Notes: generated by a model not told the origin, from the letters alone. A stretch of DNA of 64,000 bases from a virus (IMGVR_UViG_3300028327_000538:1-64000), one strand, 5' to 3'. Shown: positions 18,934 through 39,317, counted from the first letter of the stretch. Numbers and translations are program-made.

Positions 18934-18968
18934 CGCAAATTTTAGTGAGTTTTTGTTATAAACAATAT
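18934..18968 (+). promoter_or_regulatory. Bipartite phage promoter-like motif, copy 1
   Basis: CGCAAA-N11-TTTTGTTATAAACAATAT, then hairpin GAGGAATAA-ttg-TTATTCCTC and TAAGGAG RBS. Confidence 0.7.
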
Positions 18969-19014
18969 GGAGAGGAATAATTGTTATTCCTCATTTCTTT
19001 TTAAGGAGAGACAT

Positions 19015-19248
19015 ATGTCTAATTTTATCTTGATTCATAGAGTGACGAGTCATAAAGCGTGTCTACTGAATACGTCTTATATTAAAAAGATAGAGGGCGA
19101 TTTCGATAGTGATAGGAAAGAACGTGGGGTCATCTATTTAGATTCATCATCGAAATCGTACTCTGGCGTTGTAGATGCAGAAGAACGCATAGAAACACGC
19201 GAAACATTTAACGAAATAATCACTAAATTGTCAGGAGGACTGCTATGA
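19015..19248 (+). CDS. Small early-like hypothetical protein
   Basis: ATG 19015 after TAAGGAG. Confidence 0.6.
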   Translation: MSNFILIHRVTSHKACLLNTSYIKKIEGDFDSDRKERGVIYLDSSSKSYSGVVDAEERIETRETFNEIITKLSGGLL

Positions 19249-19442
19249 GCGAAAACCAAGACTATAGCTGGATCTGGGGTATGGCGCAAATCATACCAAA
19301 CGACCACGGATATGATGTCTTCGTGGAGGGAATAGAGAGAGGTGTTTTTATACGGTCAGAACGAGCGCTGAATTTAGCGGAGGTTCTTGAGGAAACAGCA
19401 AAATACCTGCGTAGAAGAACGCCCGATTTAATCTCGGCTTAA
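19245..19442 (+). CDS. Hypothetical protein
   Basis: GGAGG RBS; ATGA overlap with the previous gene. Confidence 0.6.
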   Translation: MSENQDYSWIWGMAQIIPNDHGYDVFVEGIERGVFIRSERALNLAEVLEETAKYLRRRTPDLISA

Positions 19443-19460
19443 AACAAAAAGAGGCGCTCA

Positions 19461-19865
19461 ATGGTTCAAGGTACAATCGTCTTAGTCTCCGAATCAGAGG
19501 AGCGATTCAAATTAGATGAGCCAGTCCGCAAATTACTGTATCAACTCGAACTCGCAGCAAAACAACTGGGTCAGCTTAAACTCATTTTTAATGTACCGTT
19601 AGAGGAACTCAGAAATGCGCTAAACAAACTGACAGTCGCCTATGAAAAAGACTATGGGCATGAGCTACCGTTTTTCCTCAATGAGAGAACACAGACTCTC
19701 GAATGGAAACGACCCGAAAACGGCTACCCGATACCCAAATATGTTTCATACCAGGGGTGTACTGCAAGAGGCGCACATGCCCTGGAACTCATAGAATATT
19801 TGCGAGAAACTCGTCGTCGCTGGTGCTATGCGGGCCAAATAGCCCACCTTTCCAAGCGCCCCTAG
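19461..19865 (+). CDS. Hypothetical protein
   Basis: GAGG RBS; followed by a hairpin. Confidence 0.55.
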   Translation: MVQGTIVLVSESEERFKLDEPVRKLLYQLELAAKQLGQLKLIFNVPLEELRNALNKLTVAYEKDYGHELPFFLNERTQTLEWKRPENGYPIPKYVSYQGCTARGAHALELIEYLRETRRRWCYAGQIAHLSKRP

Positions 19866-19873
19866 TTCCAACA

Positions 19874-19897
19874 AAAGAGGCGTAAGCCTCTTTTTTA
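19874..19897 (+). terminator. Hairpin terminator
   Basis: AAAAGAGGC-gtaa-GCCTCTTTTTT. Confidence 0.7.
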
Positions 19898-19911
19898 ACC
19901 TTTGGAGAAAA

Positions 19912-20559
19912 ATGCAATATACAATCTTCAAAACATACGACAACAACACTCCCGAAGAAGACAAGGCTCTACAAGAATATTGGGAAAGCGACAAACTCGA
20001 CAGACTGCAATCACAATTGGACTTTGATCTTCCAGAGAGACTGGACGATGACACAGTACTGACACTGACAATGGCGCAATGGAGACAGCTACACGAAGCG
20101 TTGGAACAAGAAGATTACGATGAATGGTACGCCGAAGATGAATCTAGTTCCCTTGAATGTGCAAAGGGCAACCTCAAGTCATCAGGTATGAATGAAATCA
20201 AGGGAACTCTGGTCGCGTTTGTGCGTGGGGTGAGATGGAACGGAAGCGGCTCAAGATGGGAAATAAAGAGCAACGAATTAACGTCCATATTCGACTTTGG
20301 CAAAAACGAGGAATCGCTGAATATCTGGTATGACGATGCCGACGAAGAAATAAGATCAATAGGAATACACCACGATGGCAGAAGCAATTACCTCTGGAGA
20401 GAGCTGCCGCAAAACATTGCCCCGGAAGAATTAGAGGAAAAGTTGTATCAGGCCGGCAGCACCGCGAGAGCGGAACAGGTGTTCATGGAGATGACAGTAT
20501 CCATAGGGCCGTACTTTGAAAAGTTGTACGGCTGGAAACAGAAAGCGATTAATCTTTAG
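19912..20559 (+). CDS. Acidic hypothetical phage protein
   Basis: GGAG RBS; WNG..G and HHDGRSNY motifs. Confidence 0.65.
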   Translation: MQYTIFKTYDNNTPEEDKALQEYWESDKLDRLQSQLDFDLPERLDDDTVLTLTMAQWRQLHEALEQEDYDEWYAEDESSSLECAKGNLKSSGMNEIKGTLVAFVRGVRWNGSGSRWEIKSNELTSIFDFGKNEESLNIWYDDADEEIRSIGIHHDGRSNYLWRELPQNIAPEELEEKLYQAGSTARAEQVFMEMTVSIGPYFEKLYGWKQKAINL

Positions 20560-20569
20560 AGGAAAACAT

Positions 20570-21052
20570 ATGCAATTTGTTGATAGTGTTGCAATGCACG
20601 ATCTGGCTACCCGTTACATGGCTGGGAGCGAATGGAACAACATAAACGATTCCGCTGAACAAGACTACAAAAAAGCCGCTCACCTGTATTTCAAAGCAGC
20701 GGAAGCGGGCAATGAACATTCGTTGTACAAACTCGGATGTATGTACCTTGAGTTACCTGACCTGGGGAATCTAACCGAAGGGATGAGTAAAAAAGAACGC
20801 AAAGAAAAAGGACTGGAATGCTGGCTCAAGGCGGCGCAATTGGAACACACATGGGCCATAGAAGACATCGGTTCCTGGTATGCTGCATCAAAAAACGAAG
20901 AGATTTACAATGAGGGCGAAAAGATCGAATGGTATAAAATGGCGATAGAATCCGGGGACATCAAAACAATCTGTTTGTCGGGCTTTAATTTGGATATACA
21001 TCCCAGATGGAATTTATACAAAGACCTGATTGCAAAACCTCTTAATCAATGA
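20570..21052 (+). CDS. Sel1-like repeat protein
   Basis: QDYKKAAHLYFKAAEAGN..SLYKLGCMY; WLKAAQ; ATG 20570 with GAGG. Confidence 0.75.
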   Translation: MQFVDSVAMHDLATRYMAGSEWNNINDSAEQDYKKAAHLYFKAAEAGNEHSLYKLGCMYLELPDLGNLTEGMSKKERKEKGLECWLKAAQLEHTWAIEDIGSWYAASKNEEIYNEGEKIEWYKMAIESGDIKTICLSGFNLDIHPRWNLYKDLIAKPLNQ

Positions 21053-21909
21053 GGCGTTTTAACAACACCATTCAGATCTTCCAATGTGTATGCTATCGGG
21101 TCTTGATATTCCGCCGGCGCCCCCAGAGTTTCAAACAGGCTCTGCATATTGGCTTCCGTGCCGCCGACGCCAAGCAACGTGTGATACTTCTCTATACCCG
21201 CCATCTTTATTTTAGTCCAGCTTTGAATATCTGCGGTTTTGTTTGAGCGTATGGCTCTCGTCAACTGCATGTCAATAATAACAAGAACCTTCTCCATTTC
21301 GGTCAGCGGACATCTCTCGACTGTTCCGTGGTCGGGCAGCTCAAGCAGCATCAGGATATGTTTACGGGAGTTATAGTCCAGGACTTGCTCAAAAACGGTT
21401 TTAAAGACAGTGTCAAACACGTACTTGCCGACCCAGGCGGACGGATCGCCTATCCTTGAGAAATCGGCAAAATACTTCAGATAACACCTGAGCACTTCTT
21501 CGTTCACCTGATCTTTCAGCAGATTGAGGATCGTCGGAGAGGGGCCGGGGTTTCTTCGGTTGTTGAAGACGGAACTCATCGCGAGCGCGTCCACTTTTAC
21601 GCGCATATCCGTATCGTACAAAAATTCGGAGAACGCCTCGCTGTCAATCATTGAGTCAATATCAATGTATCCGGCGTCCCTCAGAAATATTTTGAACTCC
21701 TTGTCAGTCAAGGCAAGGCTATCGTGCACGGCGTCCTGGACTGACATCGCGCCCAACAGCTTTTCGGCTATCGCCAGGTTTGCGGGGCCGTCAATGATGT
21801 AATATGGGAACAGATCAATAAGTATGCGCGAGAAATCGTATTTGTATCTCCTGCTCGCCACGAGCAGATAGGGCAGTAGCGACTTATAGATACAATCCCT
21901 CGATTCCAT
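21046..21909 (-). CDS. Hypothetical phage core protein
   Basis: MESRDCI start at 21909 coupled (TAATG) to the upstream stop; 287 aa. Confidence 0.6.
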   Translation of the reverse strand: MESRDCIYKSLLPYLLVASRRYKYDFSRILIDLFPYYIIDGPANLAIAEKLLGAMSVQDAVHDSLALTDKEFKIFLRDAGYIDIDSMIDSEAFSEFLYDTDMRVKVDALAMSSVFNNRRNPGPSPTILNLLKDQVNEEVLRCYLKYFADFSRIGDPSAWVGKYVFDTVFKTVFEQVLDYNSRKHILMLLELPDHGTVERCPLTEMEKVLVIIDMQLTRAIRSNKTADIQSWTKIKMAGIEKYHTLLGVGGTEANMQSLFETLGAPAEYQDPIAYTLEDLNGVVKTPH

Positions 21910-23597: not shown

Positions 23598-23623
23598 AAT
23601 TATTACCGCCACGGAAGGTCGTA

Positions 23624-23725
23624 ATGGGAATAGTCGAAATCATAGGAAGTATTGTACTTTTCTTCGTGGTAAGAACACCCGAAGACGAAGAGGCAGTGCG
23701 CTTCTTCCGCAATATCTTCAAATAG
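23624..23725 (+). CDS. 33-aa hydrophobic peptide, copy 1
   Basis: MGIVEIIGSIVLFFVVRTPEDEEAVRFFRNIFK*; GGAAGG RBS; paralog at 39766..39867. Confidence 0.7.
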   Translation: MGIVEIIGSIVLFFVVRTPEDEEAVRFFRNIFK

Positions 23726-23838
23726 CCGTAAAGCTCCCCGCTGTCGTATGATACGCGGGGAGCTAACGGATCTTTTTTATAACTTGCTGGCATATATATG
23801 ATTATAGCATAATGGCTTAAACACAGAAAGGAAGGCGA

Positions 23839-24375
23839 ATGAGCATCAACTTTTTACCGACTCATCATATGGTTGAGGGCGCGATAAATATAAAACTGAT
23901 AAATATTAATCCAGAATACAATACTCTGCCTCTGGAAACGCCTTCAAGATCATATTATATTGAAAAAGAAACTCCTGAAAATCTAACTCCAATGGCGCAA
24001 TGGCTGGCTGACAATGTTCCCAACGCCACAAGGAACAGAGGTTTGTTTACAGTCAAGGTTATTGATGACACGCGGACGCAAGGCGACATCAACAGAGAAC
24101 AGAACGCAAGAACTCGTTGGGGATGGGGCCAGTATTTTAGCACCCCCGAACAGGCTCTTGAATCAACAGAAAAAATGATCAGAGCATATAACCTGGACGC
24201 GGAACCGGCTACAATAAAAGACTTCGACTTTCCTTTATACAATGGAGAGCCGGTAAGCGAATATTGGGAAAAAATCGCAAGCCATCTACAGTCGCAAGGG
24301 ACAACGAGAATTATAATAACAGACCATAATCAGAATAAGGTTTGCTACCCGCCCAGCAGCGAGCAACGCACATGA
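23839..24375 (+). CDS. Hypothetical protein
   Basis: AAGGAAGG RBS; 178 aa. Confidence 0.6.
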   Translation: MSINFLPTHHMVEGAINIKLININPEYNTLPLETPSRSYYIEKETPENLTPMAQWLADNVPNATRNRGLFTVKVIDDTRTQGDINREQNARTRWGWGQYFSTPEQALESTEKMIRAYNLDAEPATIKDFDFPLYNGEPVSEYWEKIASHLQSQGTTRIIITDHNQNKVCYPPSSEQRT

Positions 24376-24581
24376 ACATCAAATCAATCAAATTTGCCAT
24401 TAGGATTTACTGGAAAGAGATATTTGGAGACGATCCGTTTGTTCCTATAGTGATTGGGACTGCGATTGCCGCTACAATTTTAGGTGTAATTCTTTATAGG
24501 CTGTATGGACATCCATTTGACTATATTCTTGTTGGACTAGGTCTATTGGGGCTTGTTTACGCAAAGTGGGGAAAATACTAA
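24372..24581 (+). CDS. Small two-TM membrane protein (paralog of 53463..53687)
   Basis: KSIKFAIRIYWKEIFGD...YGHPFDYI. Confidence 0.7.
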   Translation: MNIKSIKFAIRIYWKEIFGDDPFVPIVIGTAIAATILGVILYRLYGHPFDYILVGLGLLGLVYAKWGKY

Positions 24582-24922: not shown

Positions 24923-24984
24923 AGATCAATTATCTCACAAAAGAGGCGGCAACGCTTCTTTTTAGCTATTAGAGGCAGTCTTTA

Positions 24985-25940: not shown

Positions 25941-26561
25941 TCACACGTTCAACAAGGCTTCCATTGCTTCGGCATACCTGATCTTAATGTTAGGCTCTAT
26001 TTCCGTTAAATAATTAGCATATGAGGCTGCCTCGTCCTTGGTCATTAAGGGTTTTGTCGTAGGAGCTTCTCGCAGCGCCTCAAATATACTACATAAACTG
26101 AGGGGCTTGCGTTCTGTATCTTCGGAGTCCTCACCAGGGCCATCCCATTCTTTAAGATCATAAGTATAATCAACCAAGTCTTCCCAATCCCAGGCTCCGA
26201 AATAGTCATACACCTTAGCCATAGTCACCATTTCTTGATAGGCGAATAGGTTGAAATCACTGTCTTTTAACTCTCTGGTGAGTTTGAGATTGCCTTCATC
26301 GTCCTTTTTGCATATCCATAAATCCCATTCGGCTTGGTCTGCGGAATTTGCTATGCCCTCGAATAAGTCCAGCACTTTTTCGAGCGCCGGCCCTCGTTTC
26401 ATTGAGAGGTAAGAGTCATCGCTGATCGGAAACCTGTACGTAGCCAAAGCTCGTCTATCCGCCAGATACATCAGCTTCATAAGTTTGGCATGGTGCATTG
26501 AGCCGCCAGCGCGGTAGAGAAAGTAAGCCGCCATCTGTGCTACTTTGCGTACTTTATACAT
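25941..26561 (-). CDS. Panacea-domain (DUF4065/SocA-like) antitoxin
   Basis: AAYFL...KLMKLMYLADR...PISDDSY.SM..GP...EW; GGAGG RBS. Confidence 0.85.
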   Translation of the reverse strand: MYKVRKVAQMAAYFLYRAGGSMHHAKLMKLMYLADRRALATYRFPISDDSYLSMKRGPALEKVLDLFEGIANSADQAEWDLWICKKDDEGNLKLTRELKDSDFNLFAYQEMVTMAKVYDYFGAWDWEDLVDYTYDLKEWDGPGEDSEDTERKPLSLCSIFEALREAPTTKPLMTKDEAASYANYLTEIEPNIKIRYAEAMEALLNV

Positions 26562-26613
26562 TCTCTCCTCCTGTCTAAAACTATTTTATCAGTATGTAGA
26601 GAGGTTTTGAGGC

Positions 26614-27467: not shown

Positions 27468-30400
27468 TTAATACCTCCCCTCACCGGAATCAGCAAGGTT
27501 TCCCGACACGAATGGGAGTACGGGATTGTAGCCGTGAATGTCGGATTTGTAACCGTAGGCGGCTCCTTCCTGCAGCCCTTTCTTGAGATAGCGGTATCCA
27601 AGGTGCGCGGCCCAATCACGGCTTTTGAGCGGCGCCTGTGTCACTCCCTCAAGGTGCGGCGTGTATGAAATGGGCTGGTGCATGGCTACTATCTTTTTGC
27701 CCTTCAGCTTCTGTATTTCATCCTCGCCAAGCCTCGTGCCCTTTTTGAAACCGGCGACGGGCTTGGCGAGAACCATTCCGTAAGCCTGTTCCGCCTGGAC
27801 GTTGTAGGGCTTCATGGCTTTTTGGTTCCATGTGTTTATCGTTGAGAGCGGGAGGACTTCGTTCATAACGGCTGTCGGGTTTGTTCCGGCGTCTGTTACC
27901 TGACCGAAGCCGGCCATGCCGCGCACTACTGTCTCTATGTTCCTGCGGTCGGTTTTGATGCCGGTGCCCTGATATAACTTTTGAAGCGTGGAGGAGATGA
28001 CATTGAGGCCCTTGTTGACGCCCAGGAGTTGCAGGGCCTGTTTGGGATGCGGCAGACCATGTGACAGCAGAGTTCCCTTTTCAACGGTGTCACCCGGTTT
28101 TACCAGGGGTTCCTTGTCGGTGAAGTGCTTGGTGTTGTCCACGAATATCTCGTATCCGCCCGCCGCGCCCTTGTTCACTTTTGTGACCCTGCCGTTGGTT
28201 GTCGCCATCGCCGCCTGTTGCTTGAATGTCTTGGGGGCTTGCAGGAACGAGGCTATGTCCTCGAATCCGCCGAACACACCGCCGCCGCCTGATGTCGTGC
28301 CGCCAAGGTGGAATGTCTTCATGGCGGCCTGTGTCAGAGGTTCCGATATGGCCTGTGCCGACTGGACGCCGATATTGTGGCCTATCTGGTAGAGGTTGCC
28401 CGTGCTGTCATGCCCCGCGCATTTCCGGCATATACCGTTGGCGGACTGGCAGGTGGCGGGCGACCTGACAATGACGGGCGCTTTTTTCTTAGCTATCTGG
28501 ACTGCCATCTCTTTTGTGATGAGCTTGCACTCCTTTGCGAGATAGCGTCCGGCCAGATACGGGTCGTCCGCCGGAAGTTCCAGCCCCTCTTTTGTCTTGC
28601 AGTCCTCCTGCGAGACAACGATGGACATTGACGTGTTGACTATCTCTTTGTTGAGGGCACCGGGCTTGCTCGTCATCAGTTGTTTGTCCAGTGAGCCTTT
28701 ACGCGCTCCGTAGAGCGTAGTCCAATAATCGGGGAAGCTCATGCCCTGGGCGTAATTCGACAGCACCGGACGTTCTATCGGCTTGCCGTCATGATCCTGC
28801 AAAATACCGGGGGCGTAGAGTATCTGTTTGACCTGCTCCGCCGACCCTCTGGCTCCGCTGGCTGCCATGACCACAAAGTTGTTGGTCTTGTCGTCAAGCG
28901 CCTGGGCTTTCACTTTCGCGTCGGCGGCCACCATCTGAGGAAGTGTCCTGGCTCCTTTGTAAGCCTGCGTGACAACGCCGCGGTCTGCCTCAAGGTCTTT
29001 GAGCGACAGTGAAAAGCCTACGTCCGTGGCGGCCTGGTCTCCGATACCCTTGATGGAAGTAACTATGCGGTTGTAGTATTCGGGGTATTTCTTCGCTATC
29101 TCCTCAAGGCGCTTCTCCACATCGGCCTTTGTGATGCCAGCCTTGAATTTGGATACGCGCTTGGGGAGCAGTTTGTTGATTTTACTGAGGCCGTCCTTGC
29201 TTTGGGACATGAGGTGCAGCCCCAGAATGGCCTCCTGATCAGGTGTGTAGTTGAGCCTGTTGTCTCTGGGGTTATAGAGGTTCTTGCTCGGCATCATTTC
29301 AAAGGCTTCTTTCCGGGCTGCTTCTGTGGCCGGAACATGAAGCGTCGCGGTGTCGCCATCAAAGTCCATGCTGAAGGGTTTGACTATAGTGCCGGGCACT
29401 TCGATTGACAGCCCCTTGGTCAGGGTTGGCTGAAAGCCCATGATGGAAAACTTATGCAGAGACGGCGCACGGTTCATCAATACCGGGCGATCAGACATGG
29501 CTGCTTCCAGGGACTTGCGGCCAATGTCGTCCAGCTCCTCAATATGCTTTTCGGCCTCTTTGTGGGCATAGCCAATGTTTTTGAGGTTCTTCATGGCAAA
29601 GGGCTTGTAGATTGTCTTTGCTATCTTTTCAGGTATTGCTATCTGATCCATGTTCAAATTGTTGTTCAGCACGACGGTTGCGCGTCCGGTGAGGTCGACC
29701 TGCTTTCGGACTACCTTTGACTGGAACATACCGCGCTTGGGGCTGCCCTCGCCGGTGATGATTCTTAGAGCGCCTTTCGCGCCCATCTTGCCTGTCTGCT
29801 CCGAAACCGGAGAGGCGACGCCCTGGATCGCGCCCAAACTCTGATACAGTGTCTGTGTCAGTTCAGGACTTTTAGTTCCGCTCTTGAGGGCTTCATTTGT
29901 CACGCCGAGATCGCGATACAGCATATTGAGCGACGAGACTTCCACGTTGCCGCTGGGAAGCTCGAAAGCCGGTCTGAACTGGGGCGGCATGACGGGGACA
30001 ACGCTTGTCATGTAGGCTTCTTTCGGCTTCATGCCGAGTTCTTCAAGGGCTTTAAGCAGCTTCAGCTCCTTTAGCATCGCTTCTTGTTTTGTCTTTGGGG
30101 CGGTCTTGATGCCCTTTGTGATCTGGTCAATCTTGCCTCTGACGTTGATGCCGGACAGCTTTTCGGATATTGCCTTGTGCCCGTCCTCGTCTTTTATGGC
30201 TTCCTGAAACTGTTTCTCAGTCATGCCAAGCAAGGTCTTTACCGGCGAGGCGAACATTGGGTTCACAATCGGATGCGCCAGTGTAATCTTCGACCACTTC
30301 TGCCCGTTTGAGCCGCCTGTCAGAAAGCGGTCAAAGAGTCCGCCCTTGATGGGGTTGCGTTTGTGGTCTAGCATCTTGAAGTTACGCAGCTCGTTTGTCC

Positions 30401-33392
30401 CCGCGTAATCAAGAGCGTCCTTGTCGGTCATGGGGGCCAGTATGCGCTTTGAGCCGTCCGTCCTTACGTTTACACCGGCGGCGTTAAGCGTGGCCTCAAA
30501 TTTGTTGTATATAAAGGGAACCTGCGGCTTGGGAAGCGGCAGGCCGTTTTCGAGGTTCTGCCAGTAATCCGCGTTCCCGTCGCCGCGGACAGTGGAAATC
30601 TCGCTGACGACATTGCGCTTGCCGTGGGAAAGCAGACTGTACAATGTCAGCGGGTCAACGGCCTTTGAGCCGTCCTCGCCGCCTTTGATTGGCTTGTTGT
30701 CCATGTCATACATTCCGACATCCCTGGCTGACACATTCGCTGTAGCGGTTTTGAACAGCTTCTGTATGACGGGCCTGCCGACAAGCACCTTGCCGTATTC
30801 TTTTTTGGTCACTGGGTCTATGAGCGTCTCGGTGTCTGAGATGCCGTGTTTCTTTAGGTCTGCCTTGACTTTTTCCAGGGACTTCTCGTCAAAGTTTTTG
30901 ACTAGGTAGGGCTTTCCCGTCTTTTCGGCTATCTTGCTCGCGGCGGTCTCAATGAGCTGGCCGGGGGTCATGCGTGTGATTACGCTGGCGGGTGAGATTA
31001 TCACCTCGGTGGACGCGCCGCCGGCTGTCTGGGGCATTTCTTTGTCGGCCACTATCGCGGTTATCACGCCCTTGTTGCCGTGACGCATTGAGAGTTTGTC
31101 GCCGACGATGGCGGGGGATTTGGTCTTTATGCTAACCTTGGCGTTGCTTCTGTTGACCGTGGCGGCGACTACCTCGCCGGGATTGAGCGCCGTCCATGTC
31201 TGCGAGGCGTCCTGGTATGGCTGCACAAGCGACCTGTGGAGGCGGTTGAACATCAGGTCTTCATTCGTGCCTGTGGTCTTTTGCAGCGTGAGAGCTGTCG
31301 GGTCTCCGGGTTCGAGGATAACGCCCGGTTTCGCCAGTCCGTTGTCGTCTATCTTTGCCAACTGCTCTTTTGTGTACTTTGTCGGGTACAGGGACATGAA
31401 CTTTTTCTTGTCTATTATAACGTCCTCGCCGTCTTTGGCGATATGAGTCTGAATCATGTGGTTGGACGTGAGCTTTTTGGCGGCTGTTTCTGAAACAACA
31501 ATGCCGTCCTCGAAATTCAATCCTTTCCAGGGCATGTAGGCCACTCTGAGATTGGAGCCGAGGGCCAGTGTGCCGTTCTTTGTGAAATTGGAATCCGCTA
31601 TCAGCTCGTCCTTTTTGAATTTCTGCCCGACTTGCAGCTTGTCTATGCCCTCGTGTGTTAGATAGGATTTGTTTTGCAGTTCAAAGTCTTTGTAGTAAGG
31701 TATTTTTATGTCGCCTTTGCTTGTAGAGAAGATGATATGTGACTTGCTTATCTGCTTAATGGAACCATTTTCGGGCGCTTTAATAGCAAAGCTGGCGTTT
31801 CCTGAGTTGGCTGTTAAGGATTCGATTGATTTTTCGCCCGCCAGCGAAGTTTGAACCAACGGGGCTTCCCTGTTTTCAAGGGATATTGCCTGGGCTATCT
31901 GCCTTGTAGCCATGCCGAGGCGATTGCCCTGGTCGTGGTGCTGAAGCGGTATAAACTGGCTGGCTATGCCAAAGGCTGAGGCTGTGTCGCGCAGTTGGTG
32001 CGTCACTTTGGCGGCGTCAATCTGCACCTGCTTGCCGCGGTGTATGGCCGTGACCTTGCCTTTGAGTTTCTGCTGGGGCAGTGCTATAACTTTGTCAAAA
32101 GCCTGAAGCGCGGAGAGTTCCTCAACCTTGTTGGTCTTGACGTTCTTGAATTTGGATACAATCTCATTGCCTCTTTTACTGGCGTCAACGGTCATATTGA
32201 GGACAACGCCGATCTTGTTGGACTCCGGCGTGTTCACGGGATCAAGGAAGCCAAGGTGCGTGGGGTGCAGGGCCTGGCTGTCGGGCATTATCGCTTCGGG
32301 ATTCTCTATGCCGCCCTCGCCTGTGATTGTGACCTTATCGTTGCCTTTGAGCATCGCTATTGGGTTTATCTGGCTTGGATTTTCTGAGAGCGCGGCGGAG
32401 TTGAAGAACGAGTTGATTGGTTTGCTGAAATACTGAGACGACACTATTTTTGTCAGGTCGTCGGACTTGCGGAGTCTGCTCGCGAGCTGATGGCGGATAC
32501 CGTTCTGGCTTCTCCTGAGCTTCTCGGTGACAAAATCCGGCGTTGAATGCAGTGTCTTAAATGCCAGGGCGTCGCGGTCGTCGGAGTCCTCTATCTTGCG
32601 GCTCACGTTCAGAACCTTTTCCAGGCCGCGGAGAATGAAACCGCCGTCAAGTCTGTCAAACTTCTTGCCCATCGTTATCTCTGTAACCTTGGGGTCGAGC
32701 TTGGCGTTCTTCATTGCCTCGGAGAGTTCCTGAGCCATTTCAGCGACGGACTTTTGTTCGGCGCCGATTGCGTATGGGTTGACCGAGCGGTAAAATCGCC
32801 TGATTTCATCGGACATCTTGGCGTCCGTCAGCTTTTCGGTATTGGCCTTATAGACATCGGCGCCAAATGTGCGCTTCATCTGCTCGTGCGATACGCCCAG
32901 GGCGGACAGAACCGGTATGGCGTTGATTTTGGCCTGATTCACATTGATGGAGAGGTTCTTTGTCTCAGGGTCTATGCCAAGCCTGATTTGCTTGAATCCG
33001 TCGGGATTGACGTGGGCCTCAATCTCGCCGTTCTGCTTGGTGCGGGAATAGAATCCGGGGCGGAGCCGCAACTGGTTGTTGATTTGATACTGGACGCCCT
33101 GCACCACGTACGTTCCGTCGCCGGTCTGCGTGGGGACCGTCGCCAGCTTCATTGTCTTGGTTTCTGTCTTGCCATTGGCCTGTGTAAATGTGACGTCGCC
33201 CATAATCGCCACGCCATAGGTCTTGTCCAGACGCTTGGCCCTGGAAATGGCGTGGTAATTGGTCGGGTCGGCGTTCTCGGTATTGGATACACGCAGGTTG
33301 GAGACGGTGAGTGTCTTGTCGCCCGATTTAATCGGGAATGTGCTTTTTATCTGGTTGATAACAGAATCAATCAATGGCTGGGTTTGGTTCAT
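27468..33392 (-). CDS. Phage DNA-directed RNA polymerase, fused beta + beta' (probably virion-packaged)
   Basis: beta: TPE..KIG, HHDQGNRLGM, AYMPWKGLNFEDGIVVSE, GDKLSMRHGNKGVI, RMTPGQLIE; beta': GGLFD, VPVMPPQFRP, RKQVDLTGR, NRAPSLH, DFDGD, SGARGS, GARKG, RSPATC..IC..C, AQAISEPLTQAAMKTFH. Confidence 0.97.
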   Translation of the reverse strand: MNQTQPLIDSVINQIKSTFPIKSGDKTLTVSNLRVSNTENADPTNYHAISRAKRLDKTYGVAIMGDVTFTQANGKTETKTMKLATVPTQTGDGTYVVQGVQYQINNQLRLRPGFYSRTKQNGEIEAHVNPDGFKQIRLGIDPETKNLSINVNQAKINAIPVLSALGVSHEQMKRTFGADVYKANTEKLTDAKMSDEIRRFYRSVNPYAIGAEQKSVAEMAQELSEAMKNAKLDPKVTEITMGKKFDRLDGGFILRGLEKVLNVSRKIEDSDDRDALAFKTLHSTPDFVTEKLRRSQNGIRHQLASRLRKSDDLTKIVSSQYFSKPINSFFNSAALSENPSQINPIAMLKGNDKVTITGEGGIENPEAIMPDSQALHPTHLGFLDPVNTPESNKIGVVLNMTVDASKRGNEIVSKFKNVKTNKVEELSALQAFDKVIALPQQKLKGKVTAIHRGKQVQIDAAKVTHQLRDTASAFGIASQFIPLQHHDQGNRLGMATRQIAQAISLENREAPLVQTSLAGEKSIESLTANSGNASFAIKAPENGSIKQISKSHIIFSTSKGDIKIPYYKDFELQNKSYLTHEGIDKLQVGQKFKKDELIADSNFTKNGTLALGSNLRVAYMPWKGLNFEDGIVVSETAAKKLTSNHMIQTHIAKDGEDVIIDKKKFMSLYPTKYTKEQLAKIDDNGLAKPGVILEPGDPTALTLQKTTGTNEDLMFNRLHRSLVQPYQDASQTWTALNPGEVVAATVNRSNAKVSIKTKSPAIVGDKLSMRHGNKGVITAIVADKEMPQTAGGASTEVIISPASVITRMTPGQLIETAASKIAEKTGKPYLVKNFDEKSLEKVKADLKKHGISDTETLIDPVTKKEYGKVLVGRPVIQKLFKTATANVSARDVGMYDMDNKPIKGGEDGSKAVDPLTLYSLLSHGKRNVVSEISTVRGDGNADYWQNLENGLPLPKPQVPFIYNKFEATLNAAGVNVRTDGSKRILAPMTDKDALDYAGTNELRNFKMLDHKRNPIKGGLFDRFLTGGSNGQKWSKITLAHPIVNPMFASPVKTLLGMTEKQFQEAIKDEDGHKAISEKLSGINVRGKIDQITKGIKTAPKTKQEAMLKELKLLKALEELGMKPKEAYMTSVVPVMPPQFRPAFELPSGNVEVSSLNMLYRDLGVTNEALKSGTKSPELTQTLYQSLGAIQGVASPVSEQTGKMGAKGALRIITGEGSPKRGMFQSKVVRKQVDLTGRATVVLNNNLNMDQIAIPEKIAKTIYKPFAMKNLKNIGYAHKEAEKHIEELDDIGRKSLEAAMSDRPVLMNRAPSLHKFSIMGFQPTLTKGLSIEVPGTIVKPFSMDFDGDTATLHVPATEAARKEAFEMMPSKNLYNPRDNRLNYTPDQEAILGLHLMSQSKDGLSKINKLLPKRVSKFKAGITKADVEKRLEEIAKKYPEYYNRIVTSIKGIGDQAATDVGFSLSLKDLEADRGVVTQAYKGARTLPQMVAADAKVKAQALDDKTNNFVVMAASGARGSAEQVKQILYAPGILQDHDGKPIERPVLSNYAQGMSFPDYWTTLYGARKGSLDKQLMTSKPGALNKEIVNTSMSIVVSQEDCKTKEGLELPADDPYLAGRYLAKECKLITKEMAVQIAKKKAPVIVRSPATCQSANGICRKCAGHDSTGNLYQIGHNIGVQSAQAISEPLTQAAMKTFHLGGTTSGGGGVFGGFEDIASFLQAPKTFKQQAAMATTNGRVTKVNKGAAGGYEIFVDNTKHFTDKEPLVKPGDTVEKGTLLSHGLPHPKQALQLLGVNKGLNVISSTLQKLYQGTGIKTDRRNIETVVRGMAGFGQVTDAGTNPTAVMNEVLPLSTINTWNQKAMKPYNVQAEQAYGMVLAKPVAGFKKGTRLGEDEIQKLKGKKIVAMHQPISYTPHLEGVTQAPLKSRDWAAHLGYRYLKKGLQEGAAYGYKSDIHGYNPVLPFVSGNLADSGEGRY

Positions 33393-33429
33393 ATATTAAT
33401 TTTAACACGCATTGATGTATAATATAGTT

Positions 33430-33871: not shown

Positions 33872-33874
33872 CAC

Positions 33875-33909
33875 CGCAAAAAATAAGGGCGTTTTGTTAT
33901 AAACACTAT
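33875..33909 (+). promoter_or_regulatory. Bipartite phage promoter-like motif, copy 2
   Basis: CGCAAA-N11-TTTTGTTATAAACACTAT. Confidence 0.65.
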
Positions 33910-33976
33910 TATTTTTAGCTATTGCTTGCAGGGGGGCAGTGCGGTAGAATATAAATACATATTAAAAGGAGAAAAT

Positions 33977-34813
33977 GTGATTACGAAGGTTGGAAATATT
34001 CTAAAAATTGCTGATATTTATCAGTTCAACACTAACTCTAGTGATGATTATTTAGAAGGTTATGATAGCTATGGCGGTAGAATATGGAAAAACAATAAAT
34101 ATCATAGCCCGAACTGGTCGCTACTTGCTAAAGAAGACCCAAGCGGCAAAGAATTAAATTTTGAACCGATTGAAAAATTCAAAAAAAACAAAAAAATATA
34201 TAACATGGCATCAAAATTAGTAAATGGCGCGTATTCGCCCTCATATTATGATCGCGTTCACGACGTGTATGCCATTAATTACGATGAGATTCCTCCTGGT
34301 GATACTCCTGTATTAATTAGGCCGTCTAATGATTCATCTAATGCTAAAAGTTCTGTGAAAGGAATAGTAAAAGGCGTTGCTCTAGGAGGGGTTAGCGGGG
34401 CAATTCTTGGCAGAGCGTTGTCCGGCAGTATTCGCGGCGCTGTTAGTGGCGCTGTTTCAGGTAGCATTCTTGGAGGAGGGATAGGCGCTCTCCACAAAAA
34501 AGCCAACGAGTTGTCCCGTAAAGAGCGCAGAGACGCTTTTGAGAGTAAAATATTAAATCCGCAAACGACTAAAGATTACGCAAGAACTTTTGGAATGTTC
34601 GGTGCAGGTATAGGTGCTGGGCAGTCACTCAAGAAGATAATTGAACACCGCAAAGAAATAGGCGAAATGACTCGACATTTACCAGGCGGAAGAAAGGCTG
34701 CTATTGTTGGTCTTGGTATCGACACCCTTGCAAATGCTGCGTTATTAGGCGGTATCGGTGCTGGTGTTGGCGCTGCTACCGGAACATTCATAAACAGAAA
34801 ACGTAAGACCTAA
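33977..34813 (+). CDS. Glycine-zipper cargo-like protein with (M)ITKVGNILKIA leader
   Basis: GTG 33977 after AAAGGAG; several GxxxG helices; HKKA. Confidence 0.7.
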   Translation: MITKVGNILKIADIYQFNTNSSDDYLEGYDSYGGRIWKNNKYHSPNWSLLAKEDPSGKELNFEPIEKFKKNKKIYNMASKLVNGAYSPSYYDRVHDVYAINYDEIPPGDTPVLIRPSNDSSNAKSSVKGIVKGVALGGVSGAILGRALSGSIRGAVSGAVSGSILGGGIGALHKKANELSRKERRDAFESKILNPQTTKDYARTFGMFGAGIGAGQSLKKIIEHRKEIGEMTRHLPGGRKAAIVGLGIDTLANAALLGGIGAGVGAATGTFINRKRKT

Positions 34814-34834
34814 TAATATTTTAAACAGTAAGGA

Positions 34835-36316: not shown

Positions 36317-36317
36317 A

Positions 36318-37280
36318 TTATTTTTGTGAAATCGCACGAGCTTCTAGCATAAATATTTGTCCTTTCAGGATAGCTATCTCATTTTTATAATATTCCGCAT
36401 TCGCAATTAAACGATCTTGTACGCTATACAACCGTGAAATCGCTACATTTAATGCGGCGGATAGTTTAGCCATTCTCTTCTTATCTTTGTAATAATCGTG
36501 CGCGATGTAAGCTCCACCTCCAAGAACAACAACTGGAATCACTACCACGCCCACGCCAGTTGCCATGCCACCACCAGCAATACTGCCAAGTGTCGCTAAC
36601 CCACTTGTAAGACCTGCGGCGGAAAGTCCATTGACCCCCGCAAACCATAACGCTGTATATGATATTGCTCCGCCTCCAACCAGCCCAGTAATTCCAGCTA
36701 AAGCGGTATCAAGACCAGGGGCAGACCTTTCGAGTTCTTGAAAAATAGCGAGAATCTTTTCGTTAGCCTCCTGAATTTCTGCCGAGACCTGTGCGCTATT
36801 TAGGGTGTCAGTCTTCCCTGATGCTAGAACCTGTAACCTAATCACTGCGGATGAGTTGCCATTCTTAGCCGCCATAGCATAGTATTTCGCTGCTTCTTGG
36901 CGATTTTTCCCTATCCCGTCCCCAAGATCGTACATCAAAGCCAATGAAAATTGTGCGGTCGGATGTCCTTTTTCAGCCGCTTTTTGATACCAGTAGGCAG
37001 CTTTTGGCTTGTTCTGTTGTGTCCCCTCGCCTTTCTCATACATAGCTCCAAGAGTGTACATTGCCATCAAATCGCCGTCTTCCGCGGCAAGCAAGCACTG
37101 TCCAAAGATTTCCTGTGGTGTGGGGTTGGGCGCTTCTTCTCCCTTTGAAGACTGTAGCTGTTCTTTAGTTTCTTTACTTTGTGCGCGAGAGCATCCCCAA
37201 TGACTACCAGCGCAACCAACACAAAGCAATAACGCGATTAGAGTTACAGAAACGCACGACTCAACTTTTCTTTTAGACAT
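36318..37280 (-). CDS. Exported Sel1-repeat protein with C-terminal Gly-rich membrane domain
   Basis: LLCVGC signal; AMYTLGAMYEKGEG..KAAYWYQKAAEKGH..AQFSLALMY; GGAGGAGAGG RBS. Confidence 0.8.
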   Translation of the reverse strand: MSKRKVESCVSVTLIALLLCVGCAGSHWGCSRAQSKETKEQLQSSKGEEAPNPTPQEIFGQCLLAAEDGDLMAMYTLGAMYEKGEGTQQNKPKAAYWYQKAAEKGHPTAQFSLALMYDLGDGIGKNRQEAAKYYAMAAKNGNSSAVIRLQVLASGKTDTLNSAQVSAEIQEANEKILAIFQELERSAPGLDTALAGITGLVGGGAISYTALWFAGVNGLSAAGLTSGLATLGSIAGGGMATGVGVVVIPVVVLGGGAYIAHDYYKDKKRMAKLSAALNVAISRLYSVQDRLIANAEYYKNEIAILKGQIFMLEARAISQK

Positions 37281-37293
37281 ACCTCTCCTCCTT

Positions 37294-37544
37294 ACCAAGA
37301 GACGTACATCCTACCAGAAATGCCTTATGTTTTCTCCCTGGATTGTTTCAGGGCGATCAGGATGGACGAGAGACCGGTCAGGAAAGCGGCGCCGTCGTCC
37401 AGCCATCCGACTACAGGAATGACATCCGGGATAAAGTCTACAGGAGAAACAATATATACCAGGCTGGCTATGGGGATTAAATATCTTGTGACGATTTTAC
37501 GCATGTCTCTCACCAAGAGACGTACATACTACCAGAAATGCCTT
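37294..37544 (-). repeat. 33-bp direct repeat (1 mismatch) flanking the DUF1232 gene; contains an extended -10
   Basis: ACCAAGAGACGTACAT(C/A)CTACCAGAAATGCCTT at 37294-37326 and 37512-37544; minus strand TGgTAG(G/T)AT. Confidence 0.85.
37325..37516 (-). CDS. DUF1232/YkvA family membrane protein
   Basis: YIVSPVDFIPDVIPVVGWLDD signature. Confidence 0.9.
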   Translation of the reverse strand: MVRDMRKIVTRYLIPIASLVYIVSPVDFIPDVIPVVGWLDDGAAFLTGLSSILIALKQSREKT

Positions 37545-37553
37545 GTATTTTCT

Positions 37554-37961
37554 TCACTTCTTTGTCACGAGAGACGCCATTATTGAGTCAATCCACGATT
37601 TAATACGATCTTCCGATTGTTTGAGCATGTCGAGTATTTCTTTTTGTGTTGGGATTTCTTTCATACGGTGTCCAATGCTTTCCAGTTTTGCCGTGAAAGC
37701 CCCGCGCATTTCCTTAATTTCAGAAATCGCTTCGTCGTGCGCTTTTAGCTTATCCCAAAGATCCTTGTTGCGCTTATCATCTCTCGCTTTTATTTCCAGT
37801 ATTTGCATCTCAAAGTGTTTCTTCTGCGCTTCAAGCTGAGACTCAAAGGATGCTTCCATTTTTTCCATAGCGCGTGAGTTAGAATTCCAAATATAGGCGG
37901 CAAATATGCCCAATAGACCAACCGCGCTGTTCATTATCCATTCGGTGTTAATCGTTGACAT
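37554..37961 (-). CDS. Single-TM coiled-coil protein of the lysis cassette
   Basis: N-terminal TM and coiled coil; follows the spanins. Confidence 0.5.
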   Translation of the reverse strand: MSTINTEWIMNSAVGLLGIFAAYIWNSNSRAMEKMEASFESQLEAQKKHFEMQILEIKARDDKRNKDLWDKLKAHDEAISEIKEMRGAFTAKLESIGHRMKEIPTQKEILDMLKQSEDRIKSWIDSIMASLVTKK

Positions 37962-38271
37962 TGTCTCTCCTTTGTTGTGTTTGTGTCTGGTTTAGATACG
38001 CCTTGAGACGTGTTTCCAGATCCAGCCCCCAGGCCGTAAGAAGTTCTCTGTCAGCGAGCAGTATCTTTGCGAGGTCTTGGATTGTGAGTTCTTTAAGGTC
38101 TTTGAGATTCGCGCTTGGCAGAAGCGGGCGCGGGGGTATGGTTGGTTCCGGTGCGGGGACGACTATGTATTCCCGGATTACCAGTGTTTCAGGCTTCGGC
38201 GCGGGAGGGCACGGTTTGACGCAACCGAGAACGCCAATAGCCAAACATATAATAGTTATCACGCTTTTCAT
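37948..38271 (-). CDS. o-spanin (Rz1-like lipoprotein)
   Basis: Lipobox VLGC, Pro-rich mature part, directly after the i-spanin. Confidence 0.7.
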   Translation of the reverse strand: MKSVITIICLAIGVLGCVKPCPPAPKPETLVIREYIVVPAPEPTIPPRPLLPSANLKDLKELTIQDLAKILLADRELLTAWGLDLETRLKAYLNQTQTQQRRDNVND

Positions 38272-38280
38272 ATCTATCCC

Positions 38281-38652
38281 CTAATTGGGCGCCAGACGAT
38301 TGACTACAACTTGAGCTTCGGCAACGGCCCAGGCTATAAACTCTTCCGCGTCGTCTGATACGGGCTTGTCTAAGATTGCCTGCGCGTGCAGTTCGCCTTT
38401 GACGCGATGCGTGGCGGCTATAACGGCGGCGTTTGAGATTGCTTCGGACTGCGATTTGGCGTCGGCTTTTATACTCTCTATCAGTTCGGCTTGAGGAACA
38501 ACGAGGCGGGCCAGTTGGTCTTTTTCGGCCTGTAGTTTCCCAATCTCGGAGTTTAGTCCGGCTATGGTTTTGTCCTGTTTGCTGGTGCGCCGTGCGCTCA
38601 CAACCACAATGGTTATGAGAATGACAATTAGAAGCAGCCATATTTTATTCAT
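38281..38652 (-). CDS. i-spanin (Rz-like)
   Basis: N-terminal TM anchor followed by a coiled coil. Confidence 0.65.
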   Translation of the reverse strand: MNKIWLLLIVILITIVVVSARRTSKQDKTIAGLNSEIGKLQAEKDQLARLVVPQAELIESIKADAKSQSEAISNAAVIAATHRVKGELHAQAILDKPVSDDAEEFIAWAVAEAQVVVNRLAPN

Positions 38653-38891
38653 TTTTTACCCGACTCTGCCAACATAGTAAGCATCCCATTGCATTGCGCT
38701 TTGTATATATCGCGTTCTTCTTTCAGATTTTCGTTTTCTCGCCGCAAACTTATGATTTGAAGCTCAAGCTGCTCTGCTCTTGCTTTTATCTCTTCGAGCG
38801 CCCGCGCTTTAACTAAAAGTTCGCAGACAAATCTGTTGTGTCTGTTACGAAACATCCAAAGGCTATCCATTATCCATCTCAAAAATTTCAT
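38649..38891 (-). CDS. Coiled-coil hypothetical protein
   Basis: Coupled within the lysis operon. Confidence 0.5.
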   Translation of the reverse strand: MKFLRWIMDSLWMFRNRHNRFVCELLVKARALEEIKARAEQLELQIISLRRENENLKEERDIYKAQCNGMLTMLAESGKK

Positions 38892-39256
38892 TGTTCTTTT
38901 GCCTCAGCAAAGTTACCTGCCGTAAGCATTCCAAAAGAGCCAATAATAATAAAAGTAGCAAAATCTCTAAGAGGGCCGTTTATTTCAAACCACAATCCCA
39001 AAATACACAATACAGCCCCCAAAAGAAAAGCGAAGAAAGCAATCATCCGCTTAGTGCTTGGAGCGTTTGGACGTTCACAAAGTCCTCTTAAAACAAATGG
39101 AATAATACCAGGGGGCAAAGAGGGCCATTCTTCTTTAGAGTGAGCCTCCTCTTCTTCTTTAATAATTTCCTTTGGAGGATTATTTAAGGCGTCCTCCAAA
39201 GGCGGAAGAAAGGCGAAATCATCCCCTTCCGTTTTCTTTTTATCCTGGCGTTTCAT
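38888..39256 (-). CDS. Putative holin (2 TM)
   Basis: PSTKRMIAFFAFLLG...two TMDs; first gene of the spanin operon; leaderless promoter. Confidence 0.55.
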   Translation of the reverse strand: MKRQDKKKTEGDDFAFLPPLEDALNNPPKEIIKEEEEAHSKEEWPSLPPGIIPFVLRGLCERPNAPSTKRMIAFFAFLLGAVLCILGLWFEINGPLRDFATFIIIGSFGMLTAGNFAEAKEQ

Positions 39257-39282
39257 ATGGTTTATTATAGCACGGCTATACC

Positions 39283-39317
39283 CGCAAAAACACTGGATAT
39301 TTTGTTATAAACATTAT
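39283..39317 (+). promoter_or_regulatory. Bipartite phage promoter-like motif, copy 3
   Basis: CGCAAA-N11-TTTTGTTATAAACATTAT, then GGGAA..TTCCC hairpin and TAAGGAGG RBS. Confidence 0.7.

Follow-up and report, generated by a model that had tools for sequence, protein, structure and literature searches.

Does the bipartite motif CGCAAA-N11-TTTTGTTATAAACAnTAT, which recurs with fixed spacing ahead of plus-strand genes of this phage, act as a promoter, and which transcription machinery would read it? The window analyzed here covers 64 kb, starting at the first nucleotide, of an IMG/VR virus record of 96,165 bp with a CheckV completeness of 58%. A pattern search of the window returned three exact plus-strand matches (Table 1), vs none in 100 dinucleotide-preserving shuffles, thereby confirming the original prediction of three intergenic copies with identical spacing. 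Beyond the window, the record has two additional plus-strand copies, each with one mismatch, at 77580 and 80754. All five copies of the 96-kb contig, hereafter class A sites, are intergenic and co-oriented with the plus-strand genes that they were proposed to head, the distance from their TG to the next start codon on that strand being about 53-82 nt.

Table 1. Positions of the class A copies and of neighboring features, counted from the first nucleotide of the window.
Feature	Position	Strand	Remarks
Leaderless start of the large terminase gene, divergent	18920-18932	-	ATG 18920 in frame with ORF 17349-18938
Candidate class A promoter, copy 1	18934-18968	+	Exact match; matrix score 38.3 bits; intergenic
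Parts of copy 1	CGCAAA 18934-18939; TG 18954-18955; TATAAA 18957-18962; predicted start G18969	+	
Predicted 5' transcript end with 9-bp stem-loop 18972-18992	18969-18992	+	RNAfold -10.0 kcal/mol, z -3.4
Five-small-gene unit behind copy 1	19015-21052	+	All ORFans; last with one weak Sel1-like repeat
Single-chain beta-beta' RNA polymerase (RNAP), 1974 aa, candidate reader of the motif	27468-33392	-	Pfam Rpb2_6, Rpb1_1, Rpb1_2, Rpb1_4, Rpb1_5
Candidate class A promoter, copy 2	33875-33909	+	Exact match; matrix score 23.2 bits
Parts of copy 2	TG 33895-33896; TATAAA 33898-33903	+	
Single gene behind copy 2	33977-34813	+	Glycine-zipper-like protein, function not assigned
Divergent leaderless promoter TGCTATAAT-N7-ATG of gene 38888-39256	39254-39272	-	Back to back with copy 3
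Candidate class A promoter, copy 3	39283-39317	+	Exact match; matrix score 36.1 bits
Parts of copy 3	TG 39303-39304; TATAAA 39306-39311; predicted start G39318	+	
Predicted 5' stem-loop of transcript 3, 39320-39337	39318-39337	+	By folding
Small genes behind copy 3	39357-39871	+	Unit ends at terminator 40098-40114
Intrinsic terminator of the preceding unit	40098-40114	+	7-bp stem, 4 G-C pairs, T-rich tail; then TTTTAGCTATAAT

As in bacterial extended -10 promoters (TGnTATAAT), which need no -35 box, one base separates the TG from the TATAA-N hexamer downstream, CGCAAA is positioned exactly 17 bp upstream of this hexamer in a sigma-70-type geometry, and transcription would start 7-8 nt downstream. 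The 17-bp spacer is found in every copy, the TG is invariant, and the distance from GCA to TG is identical in 32 of the 33 seed sites. Unlike in those promoters, the -35-position box reads CGCAAA or GGCAAA in this phage, and across three genomes 35 sites have yGCAAA. This box is never TTGACA, with which it shares 2/6 positions, TTGACA being the general sigma-70 consensus, from which the preferences of the actual host may differ. Four copies have TATAAA as their hexamer and the fifth has TATAAG, with the A at position 2 present and T-7 absent in 5/5. Conservation amounts to about 40 bits, including the T tract of the spacer and the start region, which is far above that of host promoters, and the element follows the phage lineage, not the host. 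Class A sites are missing from the output of a strict sigma-70 scan, whose sigma-70-like matches are at chance level. The earlier statement that the motif does not fit a -35/-10 consensus is thus right for the letters, given this omission, and wrong for the geometry, which is that of an extended -10 element with 17-bp spacing. The proposed layout comprises a yGCAAA(A) box at the -35 position, a spacer of 17 bp with a T tract at its end, and an extended -10 of the form TG-T-TATAA(T/A/G); the predicted start mostly falls on the G within a conserved (T)ATG.

Copies 1 and 3 are each followed by a hairpin and then by a ribosome-binding site, as originally predicted (AAGGAG and ATG 19015; AAGGAGG and ATG 39357). 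In copy 1, CGCAAA is followed by a variable 11-nt spacer and the T tract, and 61 nt separate the TG from its ATG. A 47-nt stretch at copy 3, spacer included, is 94% identical to a copy on the metagenome contig L249 with unrelated flanks. Copy 2 has neither the ATG/G start context nor an in-register hairpin; on its 3' side lie TTTTTAGCTAT and, at 33945-33950, TAGAAT as a possible second -10. At most sites the stem-loop begins within the first four nucleotides (+1 to +4) of the transcript as predicted, thereby fixing the register of the start site; the stem sequences differ between sites (mean folding z -1.5; 54% below -1.5). The RNA would then carry a stem-loop first and a Shine-Dalgarno site next, within a typical 5' UTR of 38-41 nt, and the stem-loop presumably stabilizes the transcript or marks it for regulation. 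The sequence ahead of 40150, described earlier as a degenerate copy of the motif with a hairpin, is no class A site: it scores less than 8 bits on the 40-bit matrix built from 32 copies, and consists of an ordinary terminator followed on its 3' side by a different -10 element, TTAGCTATAAT.

The matrix of about 40 bits, built from 32 fixed-spacing sites, finds 18-19 sites in the related phage genome G002 (157 kb, complete, 32% G+C), 12 in the relative G001, 3 in L091 and 3-4 variants in G003, but none in 70 loci of the group whose RNAPs are 30-38% identical. The G+C content of the two motif-rich relatives is 32% vs 46% in this phage. Sites are intergenic in 5/5 cases here and in 11/12 and 16/18 cases elsewhere (binomial P 3e-5 to 6e-13), and lie on the strand opposite the RNAP gene in 5/5 cases here, 18-19/19 in G002 and 12/12 in G001. 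The last base of the -10 hexamer is T in G001 (11/12) and G002 (17/18), so that 28 of their 30 sites show TATAAT in a perfect TGnTATAAT extended -10, whereas this phage (5/5), L258 and the Arash group have A or G, and G003 has G (3-4 sites). This -7 base is constant within each phage and variable between phages, which is not what reading of T-7 by a host sigma-A would predict. Where the copies lie and how they are oriented, their conservation in relatives and the 5' stem-loop that keeps register with the predicted start strongly support the candidate promoter, and these sequence data make it very probable that the motif is a promoter common to a clade of uncultured large phages encoding a single-chain beta-beta' RNAP.

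The homologues of this RNAP form a family of about 2000-aa proteins encoded on phage contigs of 100-215 kb. Its gene starts without a leader (TGTTAAAAT-N6-ATG at 33392) under the same promoter type as the structural genes, the leaderless TGnTATAAT class heading RNAP, sigma and structural genes. The large terminase gene, identified by terminase family matches, has a -10 element, TATCAT (18927-18932), that abuts the CGCAAA box of copy 1. No other conserved class of promoters came to light that might belong to the fused RNAP. The genes driven by the motif in this phage have no homologues in relatives, whereas structural and RNAP genes do; the unit behind copy 1 in particular has none in three related genomes. 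The driven genes with family matches are Rha/ANT-like and RNA-ligase-like. The cassettes headed by class A sites would consist of small, non-structural genes that evolve fast and are all encoded on the other strand from the RNAP and structural genes; most likely they are early genes.

A candidate for the recognition of class A sites is found in the three close relatives examined. G001, G002 and G003 each encode a protein similar to gp10 of Salmonella phage Arash with a Pfam Sigma70_r3 match; in G002 its gene opens the RNAP operon, and in G001 and G003 it shows linkage to that of the RNAP. The part of RpoD to which the G002 protein aligns is regions 2.4-3.1. In the 96-kb record, no sigma-like gene was found with Pfam r2/r3/r4, tblastn and a custom HMM, and the sigma slot of the relatives, upstream of 56853-57230, is differently occupied; as the record is only 58% complete, this is absence of evidence. 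In our model, the probable reader is this phage sigma-70-family factor of about 223 aa, encoded in the RNAP operon of close relatives. The -10/TG and the GCAAA box could be recognized by its conserved region 2.4-3.1 together with a helix-turn-helix-like tail at the C terminus, and the factor most likely programs the phage's own fused RNAP.

The cultured phage Arash (OQ632216.1) and the related Vibrio phages D69/D148/D181 are large phages with bacterial-type RNAP. The Arash RNAP is homologous to the one described here (30-31% identity over most of its length), and its gp10 sigma-70-family factor is homologous to that of the relatives of this clade; however, the annotation of Arash splits the RNAP into two genes, beta and beta', and its host and G+C content (53%) differ. 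Arash virions contain RNAP beta, beta' and a sigma factor (PMC10585845), in a paper in which the word "promoter" occurs 0 times (PMC10585845). A simpler form of the motif, TGGTATAAG, gives 31 matches in 70 distant fused-RNAP loci, 31/31 opposite the RNAP gene, and 20 reverse-strand matches in Arash with none on the forward strand (control word 2+2). In the first 66 kb of Arash, these sites precede non-structural genes and tRNAs. Both phages share a strongly strand-biased TG-n-TATAA-G-type motif ahead of non-structural genes and opposite the RNAP gene, but the Arash motif is TGGTATAAGTA, and no conserved GCAAA box is seen there. Judged from sequence comparison, the motif of this phage is a clade-specific bipartite derivative of the Arash-type motif.

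In jumbo phages with virion multisubunit RNAPs, such as phiKZ and AR9, bioinformatic searches upstream of early operons yield a conserved AT-rich motif centered near -10, which proved to be the early promoter wherever it was tested (PMC7598289). The element described here is likewise an AT-rich, -10-centered motif of RNAP-encoding phages that is recognizable from sequence. In phiKZ, late transcription starts at the G of TATG; here, too, the predicted +1 is the G of a (T)ATG at the end of the motif. The promoters of phiKZ and AR9 are devoid of the -35 box, the 17-bp spacing and the TG extension that are all present here. Their enzymes consist of four or five polypeptides, very divergent from bacterial RNAP and without a sigma-70 homologue, whereas the RNAP described here matches bacterial Pfam domains directly and the relatives carry a true sigma-70-family protein.

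The original prediction made the phage's own machinery the reader. The evidence for this part of the claim is indirect: the element is kept across widely differing G+C contents, its box is GCAAA and not TTGACA, its -7 base varies by phage, TGGTATAAG recurs in distant fused-RNAP phages, and a sigma-70-family protein is encoded in the RNAP operon of relatives. On balance, we consider it somewhat more probable than not that a factor encoded by the phage, and not the main sigma of the host, mediates the reading of class A sites. Reading by the host, in which the primary sigma holoenzyme would use the extended -10 and the T tract and GCAAA would be phage-optimized upstream elements of a strong early promoter, comparable to the highly conserved ones of T4, appears unlikely. 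Its corollary is that the phage RNAP reads another class, for instance the leaderless TGnTATAAT. The perfect TG-n-TATAAT of G001 and G002 could probably be used by any primary sigma, and the phage sigma, which resembles RpoD regions 2.4-3.1 and has RpoD itself as its best similarity, might prefer the leaderless class instead. Against this, primary sigmas bind T-7 in a pocket, whereas the hexamers of this phage, G003, L258 and the Arash group end in A or G; GCAAA is kept in 35/35 sites of three genomes where TTGACA would suit a host sigma better; and the distribution of the motif follows that of the phage RNAP/sigma lineage over a G+C range of 32-53% and at least one known host, Salmonella. If class A were read by the host, and the phage RNAP read the class ahead of its own gene, the virion or host read-through would still be needed as the source of the first RNAP molecules.

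A phage sigma or activator could also redirect the host core RNAP to the motif, leaving the fused RNAP with another task. SPO1 gp28 and the "sigma appropriation" of T4 MotA/AsiA, in which a box replaces the -35 element, are precedents, and the non-consensus box at the -35 position next to a sigma-70-like -10 recalls T4 middle promoters (MotA box at -30), although box sequence and position differ and this phage group has its own RNAP. The sigma-70-family protein of the relatives could in principle bind either core. Nevertheless, its gene heads or accompanies that of the phage RNAP in all three relatives, the Arash sigma is packaged together with RNAP, no PF09114 or PF09010 match (MotA/AsiA) occurs in the incomplete 96-kb record, and no other conserved promoter class was found for the fused RNAP, which makes this scenario rather improbable. 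It is most improbable that the motif is not a conventional promoter at all, but a repressor operator, a recombinase or packaging site, or a DNA-hairpin promoter of the N4 type. In N4, a virion RNAP transcribes early genes and host RNAP late ones, the former being a single-subunit RNAP of the T7 type, which recognizes hairpins in the DNA with a 5-7 bp stem and a 3-nt loop. TTGTTATAAACAA is indeed near-palindromic in this phage, and GCAAAA and TTTTGT are partly complementary, but the palindrome is lost in relatives, which have TTGTTATAATATAT. Unlike in N4, the element forms no stable DNA hairpin, single-stranded DNA folding at -0.2 to -1.7 kcal/mol (z -0.8 to +0.6) being no better than in shuffles. 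Furthermore, orientation is strictly tied to the downstream gene, the stem-loop keeps a fixed register, and about 18 copies per genome before separate cassettes are unlike a recombination or packaging site.

By analogy with Arash, RNAP may enter with the DNA and fire class A promoters first. That the RNAP is "injected", as originally proposed, is an analogy only, drawn from virion proteomics of Arash (PMC10585845), a relative with an RNAP of 31% identity, and from the promoter type common to RNAP and structural genes. Possibly as in N4, a delivered enzyme would read the early genes, while the RNAP gene is expressed with late, structural genes. The "two-polymerase program" put forward at the outset is one of several possible models.

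More tentatively, the clade may possess a self-contained bacterial-style machine, in which an alpha-less single-chain beta-beta' core and its own sigma, drifted from the universal T-7 rule of -10 recognition, are packaged as a holoenzyme. If this were true, the sigma gene of this genome would lie in the missing 40%, or a non-homologous replacement would be used. The -7 base (T/A/G) and the -35 box (GCAAA/none) would co-vary with the sub-clade, each sub-clade would have a "private" promoter that host RNAP reads poorly, and the packaged holoenzyme would start infection from class A promoters.

The bipartite motif called class A here is very probably a promoter. A pattern search of the window returned its exact form, CGCAAA-N11-TTTTGTTATAAACAnTAT, at three positions, all on the plus strand, and 0 of 100 dinucleotide-preserving shuffles contained a match, in agreement with the original prediction of three intergenic plus-strand copies with fixed spacing. 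Two further copies lie in the rest of the 96,165-bp record, which has a completeness rating of 58% and of which the window is the first 64 kb. All five are intergenic, with a plus-strand start codon 53-82 nt downstream. The hairpin and ribosome-binding site expected behind two copies are also present, AAGGAG(G) and ATG following the hairpins of copies 1 and 3. The "degenerate version" put forward before position 40150 is no copy, as it scores below 8 bits on a 40-bit matrix of the motif; the hairpin at 40098-40114, given its G+C-rich stem and T run, is the intrinsic terminator of the preceding unit, after which comes TTAGCTATAAT.

Coordinates of class A copies and neighboring features in this phage
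Feature	Position	Strand	Remarks
Class A copy 1	18934	+	exact match; hairpin 18972-18992
Class A copy 2	33875	+	exact match
Class A copy 3	39283	+	exact match; hairpin 39320-39337
Class A copy 4	record 77580	+	GGCAAA...TATAAG, one core mismatch; beyond window
Class A copy 5	record 80754	+	...TATAAATA, one core mismatch; beyond window
Single-chain beta-beta' RNA polymerase (RNAP) gene	27468-33392	-	1974 aa; direct Pfam matches to Rpb2 domains 3, 6 and Rpb1 domains 1, 2, 4, 5
Terminase gene	17349-18938	-	class B leaderless ATG 18920
Class B starts	33392, 18920, 39256, 17134, 58167, 45027, 5974	-	all with T at last hexamer position
Four identical elements	record 75122-75174, 76068-76122, 76658-76709, 77528-77576 (L164:11122-13576)	alternating	beyond window
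Defence/exclusion-type cargo	25941-26561; record 72989-73907	-	

The anatomy of the motif is that of a bacterial promoter with unusual letters. The downstream half, TTTTGTTATAAA, includes TG-T-TATAAA, an extended -10 element that ends in A (in one copy in G) and not in T, and the CGCAAA box lies exactly 17 bp upstream of this hexamer, the canonical -35 position, while matching TTGACA at only 2 of 6 bases. A strict sigma-70 scan did not list the class A sites, and sigma-70-like matches in class A regions were at chance level (18 vs 14.2 +/- 3.5; 5 vs 5.3 +/- 2.1). The earlier statement that the motif does not fit a -35/-10 arrangement therefore holds for its letters, but not for its geometry. 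The G of a conserved (T)ATG occupies the predicted start position, 7-8 nt past the hexamer. When 36 nt from this predicted start were folded, a stem-loop beginning at +1 to +4 of the predicted transcript was found in most of 35 sites (mean z -1.5; z below -1.5 in 54% of sites), the 5' stems differing in sequence and the typical class A UTR measuring 38-41 nt. The fixed register of this stem-loop with the -10 element supports the start-site assignment. We infer that it serves as a 5'-end stabiliser; a role as attenuator is possible, since some stems are followed by U-rich runs. A shifted register, with TTGTTA as -35 and the hairpin AATAAT as -10, was rejected, its spacing varying from 15 to 17 bp among copies and its -10 being absent in relatives. 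The conserved ATG was likewise rejected as a general leaderless start: it opens a 3-codon ORF at copy 3, is out of frame at copy 4, and is in frame only at copy 1. There, the ATG at the predicted transcript start (18967-19248, +) would give a product of 93 aa, vs 77 aa from the SD-led ATG at 19015, which makes a leaderless long form possible for this gene alone.

Near-identical DNA to this phage was found neither in GenBank phages nor in PLSDB plasmids, and a scan of IMG/VR for the exact motif gave 84 scattered single matches, which are chance occurrences in AT-rich DNA, and no record with several. RNAP homology yielded three related phage records, namely G001 (113 kb; RNAP 59% identical), G002 (157 kb, complete with terminal repeats; 58%) and G003 (169 kb; 48%), all with a G+C content of about 32%, vs 46% in this phage. 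In G002 and G001, the top-ranking intergenic k-mers read TTTTGTTATAATAT, and their sites show the same bipartite element, yGCAAAA-N-TTTTGTTATAATATATATGGAG, with an identical GCA-to-TG distance in 32 of 33 seed sites. A matrix of about 40 bits built from sites of this type detected, at 12 bits or more, 19 sites in G002 (all minus), 12 in G001 (all plus), five in this phage (plus strand, besides one weak minus-strand match of 15.1 bits), three in L091, three to four variants in G003, and one borderline match among 70 loci of the RNAP group at 30-38% identity. Intergenic placement was far above chance (P from 3e-5 to 6e-13), and in each genome class A stands on the strand opposite the RNAP gene.

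A pattern scan of metagenomes gave single matches only and added L249 and L258/L322. L258 (40% G+C) is a further clade member that also carries a TATAAA hexamer. In L249 (44% G+C; metagenome contig Ga0268262_10000259, 71.5 kb), a cassette at 511-557 is 94% identical to copy 3, the match covering the "variable" spacer AACACTGGA-AT and the hairpin arm. The flanks of the two cassettes have no detectable nucleotide similarity, so that an exchange of promoter cassettes among members of the clade is possible.

The element extends beyond this clade in reduced form. The cultured relatives found by tblastn against GenBank phages, at about 30% RNAP identity, are the Vibrio phages D69/D148/D181 and the Salmonella phage Arash. 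Apart from tRNA words, the most frequent repeat word within the first 66 kb of Arash is GGTATAAGTA, with copies reading TGGTATAAGTAnnTGTA before minus-strand non-structural genes and tRNAs; the Arash sites correspond to TGGTATAAGTA. Genome-wide, Arash has 20 reverse-strand and no forward-strand matches to the motif (2+2 for a control word), its RNAP gene being forward. The 70 distant fused-RNAP loci contain 31 occurrences of TGGTATAAG, all of them opposite in strand to the RNAP gene, against a median of 8 for permuted words. On these counts, a TG-n-TATAA-G element characterises the RNAP lineage as a whole, whatever the host and from 31 to 53% G+C, and class A is one clade's bipartite version of it. 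The paper describing Arash makes no mention of promoters (PMC10585845), and a literature search with the motif string found no published description of class A.

Class A faces a second type of promoter. Many minus-strand genes, including those for RNAP and terminase and others on the structural side, are leaderless behind a TGnTATAAT-type extended -10 element (class B), of the form TGnTA(T/A)AAT followed after 6-7 nt by ATG; the RNAP gene starts with TGTTAAAAT-N6-ATG. Other structural-type genes are also on the minus strand, and the two classes often stand back to back, as at 18920/18934 and 39256/39283. The five class A units encode small proteins, mostly without a family match, the exceptions being a weak Sel1-like repeat, glycine-zipper hints, a Rha/ANT protein and, at a greater distance within the fifth unit, an RNA ligase. 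No homologues of class A-driven genes were found in G001-G003, where the structural and RNAP genes do have them. The class A sites of G002 cluster among genes of 50-130 aa, often each behind its own terminator, which gives the region the look of an early region.

Several further features were recorded along the sequence. Three paralogues starting with MRYPQSNQLP (33430, +; 58167, -; record ~69080, +) have homopolymer tracts near the start and leaderless promoters, the first stopping just before copy 2. The tail TTTT-TAGCTAT repeatedly follows T-run stem-loops (24962, 33915, 40118, 54042), as it does at many places in G002 (e.g. L179/L180), at 32% G+C, where it often lies directly 5' of the class A GCAAAA box; it could be a terminator tail peculiar to the lineage, or else an upstream element of the promoter. 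Four 100%-identical elements of 45-53 nt (CCTCCTCC...CACCGTAGGAGGTGGTGGGGGGG GTG), within each of which lie a ribosome-binding site, G7 tract and GTG start codon, look like invertible or phase-variable gene starts. The last of them adjoins class A copy 4 and accounts for the GGCAAA box of that copy. A long low-complexity tract (AT repeats, T runs of 19-26, CT repeats; record ~80140-80250, L164:16140-16250) lies upstream of gene 79810-80136 (-), within the 710-bp gap that also holds copy 5. The cargo of defence or exclusion type comprises a SocA/Panacea antitoxin-like protein and two adjacent SieB-like superinfection-exclusion proteins.

Reading of class A through a phage-encoded specificity with the phage RNAP is favored, with moderate confidence. 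In purified Arash virions, RNAP beta ranked first among all proteins by spectra, and beta' and the sigma factor gp10 were also present (PMC10585845). Gp10 belongs, as a divergent member, to the sigma-70 family (matches to Pfam r3 and, weakly, to r2), and a homologue of about 223 aa is encoded in each of G001, G002 and G003. The G002 gene is the first of the operon containing the RNAP gene and starts with a class B promoter, TGTTATCAT-N7-ATG; its product aligns with RpoD regions 2.4-3.1. A C-terminal PYEVSRLK segment conserved in the alignment of the three sigmas looks, from its sequence, like a region-4 recognition helix, and these features fit an element with TG, -10 and -35 box at 17-bp spacing. 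No sigma gene was found in the 96 kb of this 58%-complete record by Pfam r2/r3/r4 models, tblastn with the relatives' sigmas and Arash gp10, or a custom HMM run over all six-frame ORFs, the single weak r4 match belonging to a SieB-like protein; here lies the chief gap in the case for a phage-encoded reading. In the relatives, the sigma-like gene lies directly upstream of the orthologue of 56853-57230 (-); here the syntenic slot lacks it and is occupied by a small divergent gene (57288-57620) and by one containing a C12 tract (57613-58167). Since the replication module of the relatives is likewise absent from the record, the sigma gene may be in the unsampled 40% of the genome.

The main rival explanation, in which host sigma-A reads class A, draws on the perfect TGnTATAAT of G001 and G002, but runs against the variation at -7, a -35 box that never varies and is not the consensus, and the occurrence of the motif throughout the lineage. 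The last hexamer base is T in 11 of 12 G001 and 17 of 18 G002 sites, A or G in all five copies of this phage, and G in G003, uniform within a phage and different between phages. Primary sigma factors have a pocket that binds T-7 (PMC7598289), so that fixing A or G would be unexpected for a phage tuning its promoters to a host sigma. A search for the host among GTDB contigs turned up only cellular rpoBC genes and two phage-like contigs in bins, and gave no clue to its identity. A second rival would place a phage sigma on the host core. For appropriation of the MotA/AsiA kind, no homologue of either protein was found in the 58%-complete record; for an N4-type DNA hairpin promoter, the class A element showed no stable fold; and an operator or recombination site is contradicted by a dyad that is not conserved and a strict orientation. 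The RNAP gene, and the sigma gene of G002, stand behind class B and never behind class A. The enzyme could arrive with the virion and read class A first, as originally proposed, in a programme resembling that of N4; host RNAP could read class B, after which the newly made phage enzyme would read class A; or one phage holoenzyme could serve both. In each of these cases, class A falls to phage machinery.

Most of what is known about multisubunit RNA polymerases encoded by phages comes from jumbo phages of the phiKZ/AR9 type, whose enzymes have diverged strongly and work without sigma. The present lineage has a nearly bacterial beta-beta' core in one chain, to which the relatives add a true sigma-70-family factor. 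This RNAP family is large, with proteins of about 2000 aa on phage contigs of 100-215 kb. Class A is a candidate promoter for this lineage's RNAP, one in which the -35, spacer, TG, -10 and start elements are clearly recognisable and the key position -7 varies naturally. The motif thereby makes testable how a minimal bacterial-type holoenzyme without alpha finds promoters, how sigma specificity evolves at -7, and whether the phage's early programme runs independently of the host polymerase, and it offers a practical means of marking early-gene cassettes in uncultured phages of a group that is abundant but unstudied.
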